Origin: Alphaproteobacteria bacterium
Lineage (GTDB): Bacteria > Pseudomonadota > Alphaproteobacteria > Micavibrionales > Micavibrionaceae
Direction: 5' to 3'
Assembly (NCBI GenBank): GCA_044221445.1
Contig: JBGAPF010000003.1
Location: 63,740 to 95,739 of the forward strand
Length of the DNA: 32,000 bases
Part shown: piece after piece, positions 1 to 31,804 of the stretch
Position numbering within the stretch: the stretch's first letter is position 1
Layout of the letters: each line of letters starts with the position of its first letter
Made by a program: the position numbers and the translations under genes
Notes under the pieces: model-generated
What the model saw: only the letters and a program-made list of their open reading frames with translations
Told to the model about the DNA's origin: nothing
The model's database searches: none

Positions 1-1760
1 GCGGCGCGGACGTCGTCGTCTCGCTGGCCGAACGCATCCTCGGACGCATGGCCGCCGTCGCCATCAAGCATCCGCTGACCGGCAAGGTTATCGTTCCGGC
101 GGGCGAGATGCTCGACGAAGTGGTGGCAGAGGCGATCGAGACCGCCGGCATCGACGAAGTTCTGGTCCGCACCGTGCTGACCTGCAACACCGCGACCGGC
201 GTCTGCGCAAAATGCTACGGGCGCGATCTTGCCCGCGGCACGACCGTGAACATGGGCGAGGCTGTCGGCGTCATGGCCGCGCAGTCGATCGGCGAACCCG
301 GCACCCAGCTGACGATGCGAACCTTCCACATCGGCGGCGCGGCGCAAAGGGGCGCTGAACGCAACTCGGTCGAGGCTCCGATCGACGGCAAGGCCGAGAT
401 CCGCCACCAGAACGTGGTCAAGAACTCGGACGGCATCAACATCGTCATGGGCCGCAACACCGAAATCGCGATCAAAGACGGCAAGGGTTCCGAAAAGGCA
501 TCCTACCGCGTCCCGTACGGCGCGCGCTTGCTGATCGAGGACGGCGTGAAGCTGAAAGCCGGGCAGAAACTGGCCGAGTGGGATCCGTATACCTTGCCGA
601 TCATCACCGAAAAAGACGGTGTCGCGCATTACTACGACCTAGTCGAAGGCATCTCCCTCGTGGAAGCCATGGACGAGGCGACCGGCATCGCCGCCAAGAA
701 AGTCATCGACTGGCGCAGCCAGCCGAAGGGCGGCGACCTGAAGCCCCGGATCTCCCTGCTCGACAAGAAAGGCAAGGTCATCAGCCTGCCGAACGGCCTG
801 CCTGCCAACTACTACGTGTCGGTGGACGCCATCCTGTCGGTCGAGAACGGCCAGGAAGTCAAGGCCGGCGACATCATTGGCCGTATCCCGCGCGAAAGTT
901 CGAAAACGCGTGACATCACGGGCGGTCTGCCGCGCGTGGCGGAACTGTTCGAAGCCCGCCGTCCGAAAGACTCGGCGGTGATCTCGGAGATCGACGGTTA
1001 TGTCGAGTTCGGCAAGGATTACAAGTCCAAGCGCCGGATCGTCGTGACCCCGACCGACAAGAGCGTCGAGCCGCGCGAATACCTGATCCCGAAAGGCCGC
1101 CACCTGGCGGTCCAGGAAGGCGATTTCGTCCGCCGCGGCGATGCGCTGCTTGACGGCGCTCTGGTGCCCCACGACATCCTGGATGTCATGGGCGTCGAGG
1201 CGCTCGCCAACTACCTGGTCAATGAGATCCAGGACGTCTACCGCCTGCAGGGCGTGAAGATCAACGACAAGCATATTGAAGTGATCGTCCGCCAGATGCT
1301 GCAGAAAGTCGAAGTCCAGAAACCGGGCGACACAACTCTTCTGGTCGGCGAACAGATCGACCGTGACGAGTTCGAGATTACGAACCAGAAAGCCGCCGAA
1401 CAGGGCAAGCTGCTGGCTGAAGGCAAGCCGGTCCTGCAGGGCATTACCAAAGCCTCGCTGCAGACACGGTCCTTCATCTCGGCCGCCTCGTTCCAGGAAA
1501 CCACACGGGTCCTGACCGAAGCCGCGACCCAAGGCAAGGTCGACAGCCTGCTTGGCCTGAAGGAAAACGTGATCGTCGGTCGCCTGATCCCTGCCGGTAC
1601 CGGCGCCTATGTCAACCGCGTGCGCCGCATTGCCGGCGACCGCGACGACCTGGCCATCGCCGCCCAGCAGCAATCGGACGCCATTGCGCATCATGAAAGC
1701 GAGCCCTTCGCAGAACCTGAAACCGAAACGCCGAAACGCGGACGGGCTGCGGTGGCGTGA
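1..1760 (+). CDS. rpoC: DNA-directed RNA polymerase subunit beta' (C-terminal part; 5' end lies outside the window)
   Basis: The frame is open from base 3 ([24 protein letters not shown]...). It contains conserved beta' C-terminal blocks ([77 protein letters not shown]). Stop at 1758-1760. Confidence 0.97.
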
Positions 1761-1785
1761 GCTTCACGCCTTAAAAGATTTAAAG

Positions 1786-1811
1786 AGAGCCCTTTGAGGG
1801 CTCTTTTTTTT
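1786..1811 (+). terminator. Rho-independent terminator after rpoC, probably bidirectional (also serves the convergent - strand ORF ending at 1814)
   Basis: 7-bp stem AGAGCCC (1786-1792) / GGGCTCT (1798-1804) with a 5-nt loop, followed by a T8 run (1804-1811). The reverse strand has a matching A-run, the hairpin, then T-rich sequence. Confidence 0.75.
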
Positions 1812-1813
1812 CG

Positions 1814-2659
1814 TTATCCAAGATGAATGCCTTTTGCGCCCAGTTCAGCCATTTTCCCCAGCACTTCGGCCAAAGTTGCCGCCTTGCTGTCTTGGCTCCA
1901 CTCACTGTCATCTCGCGGAGAATCTTCATCGGCCGTCAGGGGCGGAAGCGGGTAATCGGGCGTCAGGAATTTTCCTGTCTCTTCCGGAAGGCGGTAAATC
2001 TCACGGGCCGGCATTTGCCGCAGGACATCGACTTCTGAATCATATTCCGCCTGGGTCAGGAAGGTATCGTCATAAACCGGTCCTTCGCCATTGCGGCGAA
2101 TGCATATCATACGGATAGGCCTGGCCGCTTTTGTAAAGCTGTCGGCAAGACTTTGCGGCAAATGCCAGCTTTCAGGGTTTTTTGCAAAAGCGACGCCCAG
2201 CAATGGCCAGTATTCGATTATCAGGCCCGACGTTTTTTTCTCTTCATCGACCCTGACGACCAGCTGATTGCCGATTTTATAAGGCGTCCCATGCGATCCA
2301 TAAGGGCCGTTCAGCATGCCCAGAAGATAAAGTACGTCCCAGGAGGGGCCGCGGGCCGCCTTGTTGCTGGGGCTTCGCGAAAACACGTCCAGTTCCTCAT
2401 TGGTCAGGATGCGAAGATTTCTCAGTACGTCAGGCCTGACCATTTCGAATTGTTGCGGAATGTTTTTTGATTTTAAGCCGGGTGACCAGAAATTATGGAC
2501 CAGGTCTTTGAATGTCCCGGATTCAAAGATGGGACGCGACCGCGCAAACCATAGAAAGCTGAATCTGGACAGGGCAATGGCAGCAGGAACCATGGCAATG
2601 GCTGCCAGCTCTTGGTGTTCTGTCAGGGCCGGTACGCCTAGAGCTATGGCAGCTGGCAA
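1814..2659 (-). CDS. Hypothetical protein (281 aa from TTG at 2659; first ATG at 2593), hydrophobic N-terminus, acidic C-terminal region; no recognisable domain
   Basis: Long ORF with coding-like third-position bias. It lies 34 nt downstream of the preceding - strand ORF. The N-terminus has two hydrophobic PAAIAL-containing segments. No P-loop, metal-ligand cluster or other motif I can name. Start codon is uncertain and there is no clear SD. Confidence 0.6.
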   Translation of the reverse strand: MPAAIALGVPALTEHQELAAIAMVPAAIALSRFSFLWFARSRPIFESGTFKDLVHNFWSPGLKSKNIPQQFEMVRPDVLRNLRILTNEELDVFSRSPSNKAARGPSWDVLYLLGMLNGPYGSHGTPYKIGNQLVVRVDEEKKTSGLIIEYWPLLGVAFAKNPESWHLPQSLADSFTKAARPIRMICIRRNGEGPVYDDTFLTQAEYDSEVDVLRQMPAREIYRLPEETGKFLTPDYPLPPLTADEDSPRDDSEWSQDSKAATLAEVLGKMAELGAKGIHLG

Positions 2660-2693
2660 CGCAACGCCGGTTAGCAGATCCAGTTTCGTTATA

Positions 2694-3515
2694 TCATTTC
2701 AGCCCAAAAACGGCCGTGGTAAATACTTTTCTCAGTTTTCCCTTCAACTGCGATATCCGGCTCTGTTCGGGTTTTGCATGATCGTCTTCATCAAACCCTG
2801 TAAAAGGCGAACGACCAGCTCGCAAATCTTTAGCGACAGGAGCAAATGTCCTGGCGACCCGGGCTTCCAGCTGCGGCAAAGTCAGGTTGTACTGGATATC
2901 GCTGACAGAATTGATAAGGCGGCGCATGACATAATGACTGACGCTCGCCAGCCACCCGCTTTTCGCCGCTGCGATGTTTTTATGATAAAGCTTTGCAGCG
3001 TCCCAGCCTTTTCGCGGTGCGATCAGCGTGCTCAGGCTGTAAAGTTTTTCGCCTTGCGCGTTGGTTTTATGGATACGCCGGCCCCGCCAATTCCAGCCCT
3101 TCTGCGGTTCGGCCCGGAATACCATTTCCTTGGACGTCCAGAGCATCGGTTCGTGCCGCATCAACATGCCGCTGTCCAGCAGATCCTGGCGTTGAAAATA
3201 TGAAAACCGATGCAGGATATTATGCACCAGCTGCCTGGGCGTCGGCTTCCAGGCAGCCACCCCCAATATATGGTCGTAGTTGCAGTCGCCGCGCGTATCG
3301 TGCTTGCGGATGAATTGGCCTATATAAACACTCCCGTTGCCGAGAATATCCTGCCCAACCAGACGCTGGTCTTTAGGAATGTCCAGATCCGCGTCGGCAA
3401 TCGCCGTAAAATTGCCTTCCCGGCTGCGAAAACGGTGTTCCAGCGTCATGTCGTCTCTGTCAGTCGTGGACATGAGGACCATCTCGCCGTAGGGCGTTAC
3501 GCCCACAGCCGCCAT
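2694..3515 (-). CDS. Hypothetical protein (273 aa from ATG 3515); coding signal continues upstream without a start codon, so possibly frameshifted or 5'-truncated
   Basis: Long ORF with GC3-rich codons. The same frame stays open and coding-like up to a stop at 3699-3701, with no ATG, GTG or TTG in that stretch. A second frame starting at ATG 3711 overlaps it. No recognisable catalytic motif. Confidence 0.55.
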   Translation of the reverse strand: MAAVGVTPYGEMVLMSTTDRDDMTLEHRFRSREGNFTAIADADLDIPKDQRLVGQDILGNGSVYIGQFIRKHDTRGDCNYDHILGVAAWKPTPRQLVHNILHRFSYFQRQDLLDSGMLMRHEPMLWTSKEMVFRAEPQKGWNWRGRRIHKTNAQGEKLYSLSTLIAPRKGWDAAKLYHKNIAAAKSGWLASVSHYVMRRLINSVSDIQYNLTLPQLEARVARTFAPVAKDLRAGRSPFTGFDEDDHAKPEQSRISQLKGKLRKVFTTAVFGLK

Positions 3516-3834
3516 GCCCCGCTCATATTCTATCAGCCCGTTCTCCAGCAGGACTGCGTTGATGGGATGGTGGCCTGCATGGAACAGGTCCTGGACGTTC
3601 CGGTAAGACAGGGATAGAAGGTTCCGTTTCAGAGATGAATGTCGCTGGAAGGGCTGACTGTTCGTTAAAAGCCGTAGGCGTAGACGCCGGAACAGAGGCT
3701 AAAGCGTTCATATGGCCAAAATATCGCAAATCGCGAATGTCAGGCAAGGAAATTAAAACCAACCCGGCAGGATGCTCTTTTCCAGGCCCTTTTTGCGCAT
3801 AAAAACCAAATTTACTATTCCTTAAAAAAGTTCC

Positions 3835-3863
3835 TTGACGGCTTTTGGGGATAAGTATACAGT
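3835..3863 (+). promoter_or_regulatory. Putative sigma70-type promoter of the str operon (rpsL-rpsG-fusA-tuf)
   Basis: TTGACG (3835-3840), 17-nt spacer, TACAGT (3858-3863). It is preceded by an A/T-rich UP-like tract (about 3800-3830). The architecture matches the rpsM promoter in this window. It implies a leader of about 225 nt. Confidence 0.5.
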
Positions 3864-4093
3864 CCGCCACGATCAAGAGTTGGATGGACTGGCTGTAAGC
3901 CGCAGTTTCCTTACGGATTTAAGGCTTAGACGCAGTCCGACGCTTCCTTTAAAAGAAGCGGCGAAGTTTGAAGAACCCGCAAAGGCGCTGTGCCCTCCGC
4001 AGCATCAGGTTATGGGTTCAACGGCGAAAGCGCCATCCACCGAACAGACGTTTGAATTTTGAACGCGCATTAACACAGGAAGAGGCAACAGGT

Positions 4094-4477
4094 ATGCCAA
4101 CCATTCAGCAGCTTATCCGCAAGCCCCGGCCCGCCGGCGGCAAAAAGGCGATGAAGCCGAAGAAGAACAAGGCTCTTAAAGGCAACCCGCAACGCCGCGG
4201 CGTGTGCACGCGCGTCTATACGACGACGCCGAAAAAACCGAACTCCGCCCTTCGTAAGGTCGCCAAAGTGCGCCTGACGACCGGCCAGGAAGTTATCTGC
4301 TACATTCCCGGCGAAGGCCACAACTTGCAGGAACACTCGGTGGTCCTGGTGCGTGGCGGTCGGGTCAAGGATTTGCCCGGTGTGCGTTACACCATCATCC
4401 GTGGCACGCTCGATACACAAGGCGTGAAAGATCGTAAACAATCCCGTTCGCGTTACGGCGCGAAGCGTCCGAAATAA
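4094..4477 (+). CDS. rpsL: 30S ribosomal protein S12
   Basis: [12 protein letters not shown]...[27 protein letters not shown]...[30 protein letters not shown] at 4094 follows GGAAGAGG. The longer tracked ORF from 3968 is an upstream read-through of the leader. Confidence 0.97.
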
Positions 4478-30019: not shown

Positions 30020-31804
30020 TCAAGGCCAATGCTGGGATGTTTCAGCGTTTTTTAGGTTCAGGCGAGCCTTCCCCTGCAGGTTTGTATCGGTTGTGTCGAA
30101 AACCAGGATATTCGAATTCAGCAGCCCGGCCTTGACGCTGAAATCACCGATAGCGCAGCGTATATCCGTCGTTTTATCCTCCCCGAGCAACAGACCCCCG
30201 GCTTCGGCGATATCAAGCCCCGCCGCTTCGATCAGGAGCAGGCTCACCTTGCCGCCCGACATCGTCAAGGTCAGATGCCCGTCGCTGGTGGCAAGCACGT
30301 CGGCAAGAGACTTGCCACGCCCGTTCAGATCGATATGACCGCCAAAACGTCCTGACGATAAATCCTCGAAACGCGAATCCTTGAAAAAATCCTTGAGAGA
30401 TAATTTTTTTATCACGACATCGGTGGAGACATCAGGCATGTCTTTGCGTCCGTCAAGAACCAGTTTTCCGTAGACGGATCCCGATGCCATCCCCAGATTT
30501 AAGGGATCGAGCGACAGAACGCCGTCTTTCAATATGATCGTCACCTTAAGGCTATCCAGCGGATAGCCGGGTGCATGAAGGCTCGTGGCATCAAGAGTCA
30601 CGTTCATGTCGGCGGCCCTCAGGCGATCAAGATTGATTGGCACATCGGGCAGCACGCGGGCGCTTACGGCACGCTTTTCTGCCTCAGCCTTCTGTTCCGC
30701 CGCGACCGTTTCGCCTTTTTTGGTGGAGGGCGGGACGCCGATAAAACCCGACAGGTCGTCCATGTCAAGATAAGTGGACGTGAGCTTTGCCGTGACGTTT
30801 CCACGCTTGTTTACAGTCGCGTATTCCAGCCTGCCGTTCAGGTCGCTGTCCCCGACCTTGCCTTTGAAGTCATTGAACATCCATATATCGCCGTCTTTTT
30901 TGAGAAGTCCTGAAATGGTGTAAGGCGGCGTTGGCGGCAGGGGGATCGACGTCAGATAAAAAAGATCGGCCATATTGTCGCCTTTGAGATCGAGCGTGGC
31001 ATCGACACCCGTCAGCTTGACAGGGTCAAGAAACGTGCCTTTCAGGGCAATGGACGTTTTGCCCATGGTCAAAGTCATATCCAGGGGAAAAGGCTTGGAG
31101 GAATTACGCAAGAGAGCCACGGAGCCGCCAGTCGCATCCAGCGTAAAATCCTGATCCTGCAGTTTTCCCTTGCCGGAGATTTTAATGCTGTCCTGTTTGC
31201 TGCCACTCGAACCGCTGGCGGTATCGAGGTTCAGTTCAAGGTCGAGTTTTTTGACGTCGTCTTTGTAAACCAGCGTACTGTTTTTCAGGACCAGATTTCC
31301 GATCACAGGAAAACCATGGCGGCTTTCCGGGATTGCCGCAGCGCCGATAGCTTTTCCTTTTGAGAGCGCTGGAAAATCCCAGTTTGCCGTTTCCTCATCT
31401 TTTTTCTCAAGAATAAGCCTGGCGTCGGTAATCGTGAGTTCCGGCAGGTTAAGCTTGCCATATAGAAGCTGCCATATCTTGATACTGAAATCGATTTTAC
31501 CGATTTCCAGCATATTGGCCCCTTCCATCCCGGGGGCATTGGAAAGCCGGATCTTTTCGGCATGCAGACGAGGCGTTGTCCAGTCCCAGTCGATATCGAG
31601 CGGCCCCTCGATGGCGAATTCACGGCCGGTTGCTGACGACGCCTTGCCGCCTGCTACCGAACGCAGCCAGCCTTCGGGCAGGAAAATGAAGAACCCCGCT
31701 ATAACGCAGACAAGGATGAGAACCATCAGCCCTGTATACCGGGCAATTGTACGCAGTCTGGTACGCTTAGAAGGCACGGTTTTTTCGGGGATGTCATCGG
31801 TCAT
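30020..31804 (-). CDS. AsmA family outer-membrane biogenesis protein, apparently truncated by a frameshift near its 3' end
   Basis: N-terminal TM anchor (YTGLMVLILVCVIAGFFIF), then the AsmA-type repeat-beta region (IDWDWTTPRLHAEKIRLSN...LPELTITDARLILEKKDEETANWDF). The ORF stops at 30020, but a start-less open frame of about 73 codons continues to 29836 in the +1 frame. Confidence 0.8.
   Translation of the reverse strand: MTDDIPEKTVPSKRTRLRTIARYTGLMVLILVCVIAGFFIFLPEGWLRSVAGGKASSATGREFAIEGPLDIDWDWTTPRLHAEKIRLSNAPGMEGANMLEIGKIDFSIKIWQLLYGKLNLPELTITDARLILEKKDEETANWDFPALSKGKAIGAAAIPESRHGFPVIGNLVLKNSTLVYKDDVKKLDLELNLDTASGSSGSKQDSIKISGKGKLQDQDFTLDATGGSVALLRNSSKPFPLDMTLTMGKTSIALKGTFLDPVKLTGVDATLDLKGDNMADLFYLTSIPLPPTPPYTISGLLKKDGDIWMFNDFKGKVGDSDLNGRLEYATVNKRGNVTAKLTSTYLDMDDLSGFIGVPPSTKKGETVAAEQKAEAEKRAVSARVLPDVPINLDRLRAADMNVTLDATSLHAPGYPLDSLKVTIILKDGVLSLDPLNLGMASGSVYGKLVLDGRKDMPDVSTDVVIKKLSLKDFFKDSRFEDLSSGRFGGHIDLNGRGKSLADVLATSDGHLTLTMSGGKVSLLLIEAAGLDIAEAGGLLLGEDKTTDIRCAIGDFSVKAGLLNSNILVFDTTDTNLQGKARLNLKNAETSQHWP

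Follow-up and report, generated by a model that had tools for sequence, protein, structure and literature searches.

In the 32,000-nucleotide stretch of alphaproteobacterial DNA analysed here (Micavibrionaceae, assembly GCA_044221445.1, contig JBGAPF010000003.1, positions 63,740 to 95,739; hereafter the window), about 2.3 kb separate the stop codon of rpoC (position 1760) from the start codon of rpsL (position 4094), and the minus strand of this space almost certainly encodes a single gene (1814-3711) and not two, as judged from its translation and those of its homologues. The gene is probably a genuine and recent pseudogene. A sequence-only reading of the stretch had recognized two minus-strand open reading frames (ORFs) there, ORF A (2694-3515, 273 amino acids) and ORF B (1814-2659, 281 amino acids counted from a TTG start, of which the NCBI annotation calls just 209), and had interpreted them as two co-transcribed genes. 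The coordinates of both ORFs and the gap of 34 nucleotides between them are reproduced, but the two-gene interpretation is not supported by the homologues: in 11 of 11 full-length homologues one continuous ORF spans A and B.

Reconstruction of the gene between rpoC and rpsL

The putative gene would be read in three segments joined by two frameshifts, as follows.

1814-3711, minus strand: whole disrupted gene, 631 codons in three successive frames, with ATG at 3711-3709 and stop at 1816-1814
3607-3711, minus strand: segment 1, codons 1-35 (MNALAS...ATFISETEPSIPV); the frame runs on to a stop at 3525-3523
3605-3606, minus strand: putative frameshift 1, an extra T in CCTGTC[T]TAC, position ambiguous within about 3603-3625
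2700-3605, minus strand: segment 2, residues 36-337, the N-terminal domain; contains ORF A, which starts at an internal ATG
2697-2699, minus strand: putative frameshift 2, an extra A in CTGAA[A]TGA, which creates the stop codon of ORF A (2696-2694)
1814-2698, minus strand: segment 3, residues 338-631 and stop, the hydrophobic hairpin and C-terminal domain; contains ORF B
2543-2692, minus strand: central hydrophobic hairpin predicted from hydropathy, residues 340-364 and 367-389 with a short TEHQE loop between them

Deletion of one T (at about 3606) and one A (at 2697-2699) from the window sequence produces a continuous ORF of 631 codons, the translation of which can be aligned over its full length with the 11 intact homologues (41-53% identity). 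A word-indexed search of 5.8 billion proteins returned P0002 as the sole homologue of ORF A (47% identity, cut at a contig end) and no homologue of ORF B. A HMMER scan of 1.84 billion cluster representatives with a profile of ORF A and P0002 returned proteins of 603-624 amino acids, the first 325 or so residues of which match ORF A and which run straight from A-like into B-like sequence, as in P0005 ('...VFAGAVFGLNDISKTDLAVGVGLPAAIAVGGLLTEHEELG...NIPHQFEMIHPKVLENLRIL...IEYWPLLNVAFA...'). When the homologues were compared with the window by tblastn, they matched in collinear high-scoring segment pairs, first in frame -1 (3638-2700) and then in frame -2 (2707-1820), that abut at homologue residues 325-328 or thereabouts, corresponding to a junction at 2698-2700 in the window; intact homologues are thus collinear across adjacent ORFs in different frames. 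At this junction ORF A ends '...VFGLK*' and the adjacent frame reads 'NDITKLDLLTGVALPAAIALGVPALTEHQELA...', so that the sequence ...VFGLNDI(S/T)K... through which the homologues read is split in the window as ...VFGLK* and NDITK... in two frames. The 34-nucleotide intergenic spacer is thus an artefact of a one-base insertion.

The first frameshift comes to light at the other end of ORF A. The first 50 residues of P0002 correspond to window sequence in two frames: 'AVFISEMQSEP' aligns with 'ATFISETEPS', which is read in the frame of a small ORF (3523-3876), and 'SYRFIKDLHHAGHHPINPLIRHNGLIEYERG' aligns with the 33 codons directly upstream of the ATG of ORF A, in the frame of ORF A. These 33 codons are strongly conserved (SYRxxxDLxHAGHHPINxxxxxxGLIEYERG), which argues against ATG 3515 as the ancestral start, and no ATG, GTG or TTG codon precedes them in their own frame. 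Segment 1 carries both an ATG and the conserved N-terminal F-x-S-E motif (F25 is invariant and E28 is present in at least 90% of family members), neither of which is found in the neighbouring frame. Because the conserved coding sequence switches frame near 3606, frameshift 1 is placed there. Segment 2 is 47-50% identical to P0002 and P0015 over its entire length, the 33 upstream codons included, and segment 3 is 46-52% identical to the C-terminal halves of P0004, P0005, P0006 and P0015. A profile search of the same 5.8 billion proteins found no separate A-like or B-like genes beyond fragments at contig ends.

Authenticity of the frameshifts

Both lesions are probably real, and the window copy is probably non-functional as a full-length protein. 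The Logan assembly of SRR28480390 (a sequence of 2,545 bp) matches the window with 100% identity, both frameshift sites included; some 30 further genes lying from 4 to 26 kb (in the str, S10, spc and alpha operons and beyond) follow one another without a break of frame; and a collection of 15 billion proteins contains no intact allele of the window copy, only two fragments that are 100% identical to it. Of the 78 alignment columns in which the other 11 members never vary, the window copy keeps 77, and intact members score equally. Retention of these residues, together with the unbroken frames of the neighbouring genes, indicates that the disruption is recent and probably real. Neither relaxed constraint nor further decay was detected in the window copy (by the invariant columns and the absence of added stops), so the pseudogene, if it is one, would be very young. 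It resembles split-annotated frameshifted pseudogenes in consisting of consecutive same-strand ORFs in different frames that together cover one homologue collinearly, but differs from them in this lack of further decay.

The alternative that the gene is intact in the organism, a normal 631-amino-acid family member in which both frameshifts are sequencing or consensus errors, is unlikely. It would account for the invariant residues and for the three segments without an extra stop, and both indels lie within short homopolymer runs; however, runs of two or three bases are atypical sites of sequencing error, two errors in 1.9 kb are improbable when more than 20 kb of neighbouring genes contain none, and a different assembler (Logan) gives the identical sequence. 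Four points nevertheless count on the side of an intact gene or blur the outline of a disrupted one. Both indels, each in a short run (TT and AAA), could be consensus errors; segments that lack extra stops and retain their conserved residues are what a gene intact in vivo would show; the Logan contig, which was probably assembled from the reads behind the deposited assembly, is not fully independent; and the exact position of frameshift 1 depends on a short motif of about ten residues.

The protein family

The family to which the disrupted gene is assigned by sequence comparison is very rare and uncharacterised, and its members come from uncultured Alphaproteobacteria. The profile search of 5.8 billion proteins returned 13 clusters, of which ten are full-length (intact members of 593-627 amino acids) and the rest are fragments, including the two pieces of the window copy itself; the eleventh intact member, P0015, came from a cluster look-up. 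P0015 is HNQ91747.1, P0002 is HNS45276.1, and P0004-P0014 are JGI and Logan proteins. Members that bear a name are called 'hypothetical protein', and the two named sources are metagenome-assembled genomes (MAGs) labelled Alphaproteobacteria. A scan of JGI data with an alignment of 12 sequences located the family on two metagenome contigs, and both loci are of the P0015 type. The nearest relative of the window genome by rpoC bears the NCBI label of the Bdellovibrio/Micavibrio family. The window copy shares with the other members collinear similarity at the identity given above, all conserved motifs, the central hairpin and an acidic C-terminal region; it differs from them in being interrupted by two one-base insertions and in its location at the rpoC-rpsL junction.

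The intact family is under purifying selection: the ratio of nonsynonymous to synonymous substitution rates (dN/dS) is 0.06-0.10 among P0004, P0008 and P0015, with dS near saturation. The G+C content (GC) of the family gene rises and falls with the GC of the host contig over a range of 0.44-0.64, a sign of long residence rather than of recent transfer.

The claim of the sequence-only reading that neither protein contains a recognisable domain holds: Pfam, NCBIfam, PADLOC and PHROGs gave no match for ORF A, ORF B or the 117-amino-acid ORF at 3523-3876, and Pfam, NCBIfam and PADLOC gave no credible match for 12 full-length family members (fragments and members alike being read at E ≤ 1-10). AvrPphF-ORF-2, NUCB1_N, MFS_3 and Phage_tail_C were rejected as chance matches to single members. 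In the case of the HopF/AvrPphF type III effector (PF09143), one of the 12 members matched with E = 0.27, well below any threshold. Sequence and profile searches of the PDB returned nothing credible, the best match being to mandelate racemase with E = 1.2, and literature searches for the rpoC-rpsL junction and for Micavibrionales turned up nothing that bears on the locus.

Genomic contexts and the rpoC-rpsL junction

In the 11 homologue contexts examined, the family gene is always solitary and its neighbours vary.

P0009 and P0005: rpsA, family gene, ihfB/HU (the short contig of P0005 shows the rpsA side only)
P0011: GGDEF gene, family gene, hypothetical gene, rplU-rpmA
P0015 and P0002: HAD-like gene and F-type ATPase operon, family gene, alaS (the short contig of P0002 shows the upstream side only)
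P0004 and P0008: queA region, at some distance the family gene, then flagellin and mazG
P0012: TetR/RND genes beside the family gene
P0010: fabA-fabB-fabI, at some distance the family gene
P0006: histidine kinase gene beside the family gene
P0014: GDSL lipase gene, family gene, RelE/HTH (helix-turn-helix) gene

Most of the genes directly adjoining it have housekeeping roles (rpsA, ihfB/HU, alaS, fab genes, RND efflux, flagellin, rplU). Neither a conserved partner nor the signature of a defence island was seen in the 11 contexts; toxin-antitoxin-like genes are nearby in only two (RES in one and RelE in the other), and none of the 11 homologues lies between rpoC and rpsL. The suggestion that ORFs A and B form a toxin/immunity, defence or two-component envelope module finds no conserved gene pair, PADLOC match or steady defence-island context to sustain it. 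Junctions with translation genes recur: the family gene lies between rpsA and ihfB/HU in two genomes, one gene away from rplU-rpmA in another, next to alaS, and in the window between rpoC and rpsL (L093:3446-7646, L096:3-2398, L097:1781-4773 and window positions 1814-4477). This adjacency is suggestive; it may be chance or a real association.

Two of the contexts contain genes of interest in their own right. In the genome of P0004 (L083:5342-7864) a RES-domain toxin gene, a small partner located upstream of it and a T5orf172/MUG113 gene come before the family gene; the related genome of P0008 has other hypothetical genes at that spot, which indicates a small variable island. Beside the P0015 homologue (L091/L092:646-6766) is a complete F-type ATPase operon, its genes arranged as beta-epsilon-(ATPase_gene1)-a-c-b-alpha-gamma, an arrangement typical of the alternative 'N-ATPase' type, and a 308-amino-acid HAD-like gene lies between this operon and the family gene. 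A link to FliI or the flagellum was rejected: the neighbour matching ATP-synt_ab belongs to the complete F-type/N-ATPase-like operon, and adjacency to flagellin occurs in one sub-lineage only.

For comparison of the junction itself, GTDB species representatives were scanned with the C-terminus of RpoC; no genome was closer to the window than 76-79% identity. In the 56 loci where both rpoC and rpsL are present (further loci have no rpsL inside the 6 kb that were fetched), the distance from the rpoC stop to the rpsL start is 251-524 nucleotides in 21 and 1.2-5.6 kb in 35, the latter class including nearly all sampled Rhodobacteraceae. The premise that this space is usually gene-free therefore fails in Alphaproteobacteria, and the argument from unusual location is weak, because the junction is commonly occupied. 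That the insert is accessory and uncharacterised is supported. Nor does it belong to the core of this junction: none of 80 related rpoC loci has a homologue of ORF A or ORF B there, and other genes take its place in the three closest relatives. Two of these relatives (L003:7825-8610 and L004:7809-8570) have an orthologous plus-strand gene of 253-261 amino acids, 32% identical between them and with faint similarity to HAD hydrolases, to which the second adds one further ORF; the third (L039) carries genes for a methyltransferase-like and a thioredoxin/NHL protein, hemB and three small paralogues. Like many other alphaproteobacterial loci, the window has 1-5 kb inserted between the rpoBC and str operons; the inserted genes differ by lineage, and those of the nearest relatives are on the plus strand. 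Presence of the family gene at rpoC-rpsL is lineage-specific, and since its closest family members adjoin rpsA, the window copy was relocated or acquired at some point.

The plus-strand gene of L003 and L004 was considered as a relative of the family and rejected as an unrelated, divergent HAD-like protein; the resemblance of its endings (...G(S)APH and ...SGPH) to that of most family members (...GPH) is close to chance expectation among 2349 ORFs. The three tandem paralogues downstream of rpoC in the relative ARS11 (L039:11325-13504; 175-185 amino acids; shared motifs such as 'TNCYSYALG' and 'WSHQDG') are an uncharacterised small-protein family in tandem expansion; the one that was tested has no match in Pfam.

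Could the region instead be a mobile or defence island that was acquired recently and stems from a phage, plasmid or integrative element? This would agree with absence of the gene from the junction in all relatives, with the different chromosomal sites of its homologues, with their two toxin-antitoxin-like neighbourhoods (RES and RelE) and with a GC below that of the flanking ribosomal genes. The dip in GC noted from the sequence alone is real but modest: 500-nucleotide intervals of the insert have a GC of 0.51-0.56, and a second comparison gives 0.53-0.55, against 0.573 for the whole window, a deficit of some 3-4 points, and lower values (0.47-0.50, the lowest in the window) occur at 23001-24500. 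No tRNA gene was found; the absence of an integrase, transposase or meaningful flanking repeat is confirmed by the ORF list and a repeat check, which detected only short repeats at chance level; there is no PADLOC match; and tblastn and an IMG/VR scan found no match in IMG/VR, a phage collection or the PLSDB plasmids. With the correspondence of gene GC to host GC elsewhere, which points to long residence, a recent island of this kind is improbable.

Possible products of the disrupted gene

If both lesions are real, the independent one-base insertions (T at about 3606, A at 2697-2699) would shift the frame twice, so that the full-length protein could not be made. An N-terminal peptide of 62 amino acids would be left over, and at most a truncated fragment of the N-terminal domain from ATG 3515, lacking the HAGHHPIN and IEYERG motifs, and a fragment comprising the hairpin and C-terminal domain might be produced in addition.

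Gene fission, with both large fragments expressed and each functioning on its own so that the locus amounts to a two-gene operon, is very unlikely. Each fragment has a possible start codon (ATG 3515; TTG 2659 or an internal ATG), ATG 3515 is seven nucleotides past the stop of the short upstream ORF, where re-initiation is possible, and the NCBI annotation calls two coding sequences. However, the split arrangement is found in no other genome, a product started at 3515 is missing 30 conserved residues of the N-terminus, among them both of the motifs just mentioned, no sequence resembling a Shine-Dalgarno site is to be read before the candidate starts of ORF B, and there is no sign that the split is maintained by selection. 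Restoration of the full-length protein by programmed ribosomal frameshifting, for which nothing speaks beyond the existence of the shifts, can practically be dismissed: it would require two +1 events at sites that do not look like any slippery or +1 site known, each of the 11 homologues is a single ORF without a shift, and no Rfam element is present.

Predicted architecture and role

From its sequence, the family protein is predicted to consist of an N-terminal domain of about 335 amino acids, a central pair of hydrophobic helices, and a C-terminal domain of about 240 amino acids with an acidic tail. The central pair is the 'duplicated PAAIAL' segment remarked upon in the sequence-only reading; two hydrophobic stretches, each with PAAIAL, and an acidic tail are indeed present in ORF B, but what appeared to be the N-terminus of a protein is the centre of the full-length one. 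Kyte-Doolittle hydropathy over 19 residues peaks at 1.87 and 1.85 in the window protein; paired segments occur also in P0005 and P0004 (1.67-1.93), and P0006 has only one, weaker segment (1.48). Two hydrophobic segments, each of 19 residues or more, thus exceed the hydropathy threshold for transmembrane helices and are conserved in the family, and the central helices are predicted to form a membrane hairpin. The family has no N-terminal signal-like segment, and this together with a two-helix hairpin would place both domains on the same side of the membrane. Two reservations attach to this picture: the hairpin is called from hydropathy alone, and both AlphaFold2 models, built before the family was known, are uninformative (predicted local distance difference test scores of 37 for an ORF A homologue, from a two-sequence alignment, and 35 for ORF B, from a single sequence).

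Motifs conserved in the N-terminal domain include HAGHHP(I/T)N, IEYERG, STTD, EHRF, NYxHILGVAAWxPTP, HRQDLLDSG, WTSKE and PRKGW; those of the C-terminal domain include FxDLxxxFW, IPxQFEM, NGPYGS and IEYWP...AFA. The family alignment contains no conserved cysteine and no P-loop. Because His, Asp and Glu residues are conserved, an enzyme is plausible, and our working guess is that the intact family is a membrane-anchored enzyme or effector that uses the conserved His, Asp and Glu of its N-terminal domain.

An architectural parallel exists with Inc-type proteins. A 'bilobed' hydrophobic domain is found in chlamydial Inc proteins and in some secreted membrane-inserting effectors. The family shares with the Inc type two hydrophobic helices of about 20 residues, a very short loop, flanking soluble domains and the lack of a signal peptide; it differs in that the hairpin lies in the middle of the protein instead of close to the N-terminus, and in having no sequence similarity to Pfam or PDB entries. 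The comparison is one of architecture only. The intact family could conceivably be an undescribed class of membrane-inserting proteins of about 620 amino acids, with two conserved soluble domains and an Inc-like hairpin, that might act as secreted effectors or have a connection with the translation apparatus, a proposal that we regard as doubtful.

Other features of the window

The remainder of the space between rpoC and rpsL contains the following.

1782-1808, plus strand: predicted intrinsic terminator hairpin after rpoC, a 12-pair stem followed by T8, called on the plus strand only
3712-3834: divergent intergenic region that separates the start codon of the disrupted gene from the promoter-like site of rpsL, read from the sequence
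3835-3863, plus strand: sigma-70-like promoter match upstream of rpsL, TTGACG-17-TACAGT, 9 of 12 positions, weak evidence

A terminator had been proposed to act in both directions; the strong hairpin with its run of T is there, six nucleotides past the stop of the disrupted gene on the opposite strand, but the scan calls it for the plus strand only. Likewise the proposed str promoter is present as a sequence, but promoter-like matches in the region are as numerous as expected from shuffled sequence. Rfam has no match in 1500-4300. The RpsL encoded downstream (4094-4477) has 127 amino acids, compared to 123 in L003 and L004; near its N-terminus is a short insertion rich in lysine and glycine.

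Directly after rplQ is a gene for a membrane acyltransferase of the Acyl_transf_3 family (23354-24490, 378 amino acids), with the lowest GC in the window (0.48; 0.52 at third codon positions). The ribosomal operons are therefore flanked by another accessory, low-GC gene besides the insert between rpoC and rpsL, which had been supposed to be the only one. A 355-amino-acid ORF on the minus strand (26264-27331), immediately downstream of pheT, has no match in Pfam or NCBIfam; pheS was not found beside pheT in the window, and an AsmA-family gene is upstream at 30020-31804.

Implications

The locus makes no long-standing question testable and would hold nothing surprising for a specialist. It does show how an apparent orphan two-gene module can be an annotation artefact of one frameshifted gene, which matters for the mining of MAGs for defence and toxin systems. 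The rpoC-rpsL spacer is a common site for lineage-specific genes in Alphaproteobacteria, and its occupancy alone is no signal. The family itself is very rare, selectively maintained and without detectable domains, and its distinctive layout of N-terminal domain, hydrophobic hairpin and C-terminal domain is open to structural follow-up. If its members did prove to be a class of membrane-inserting proteins, the window would have caught a lineage in the act of losing the gene.

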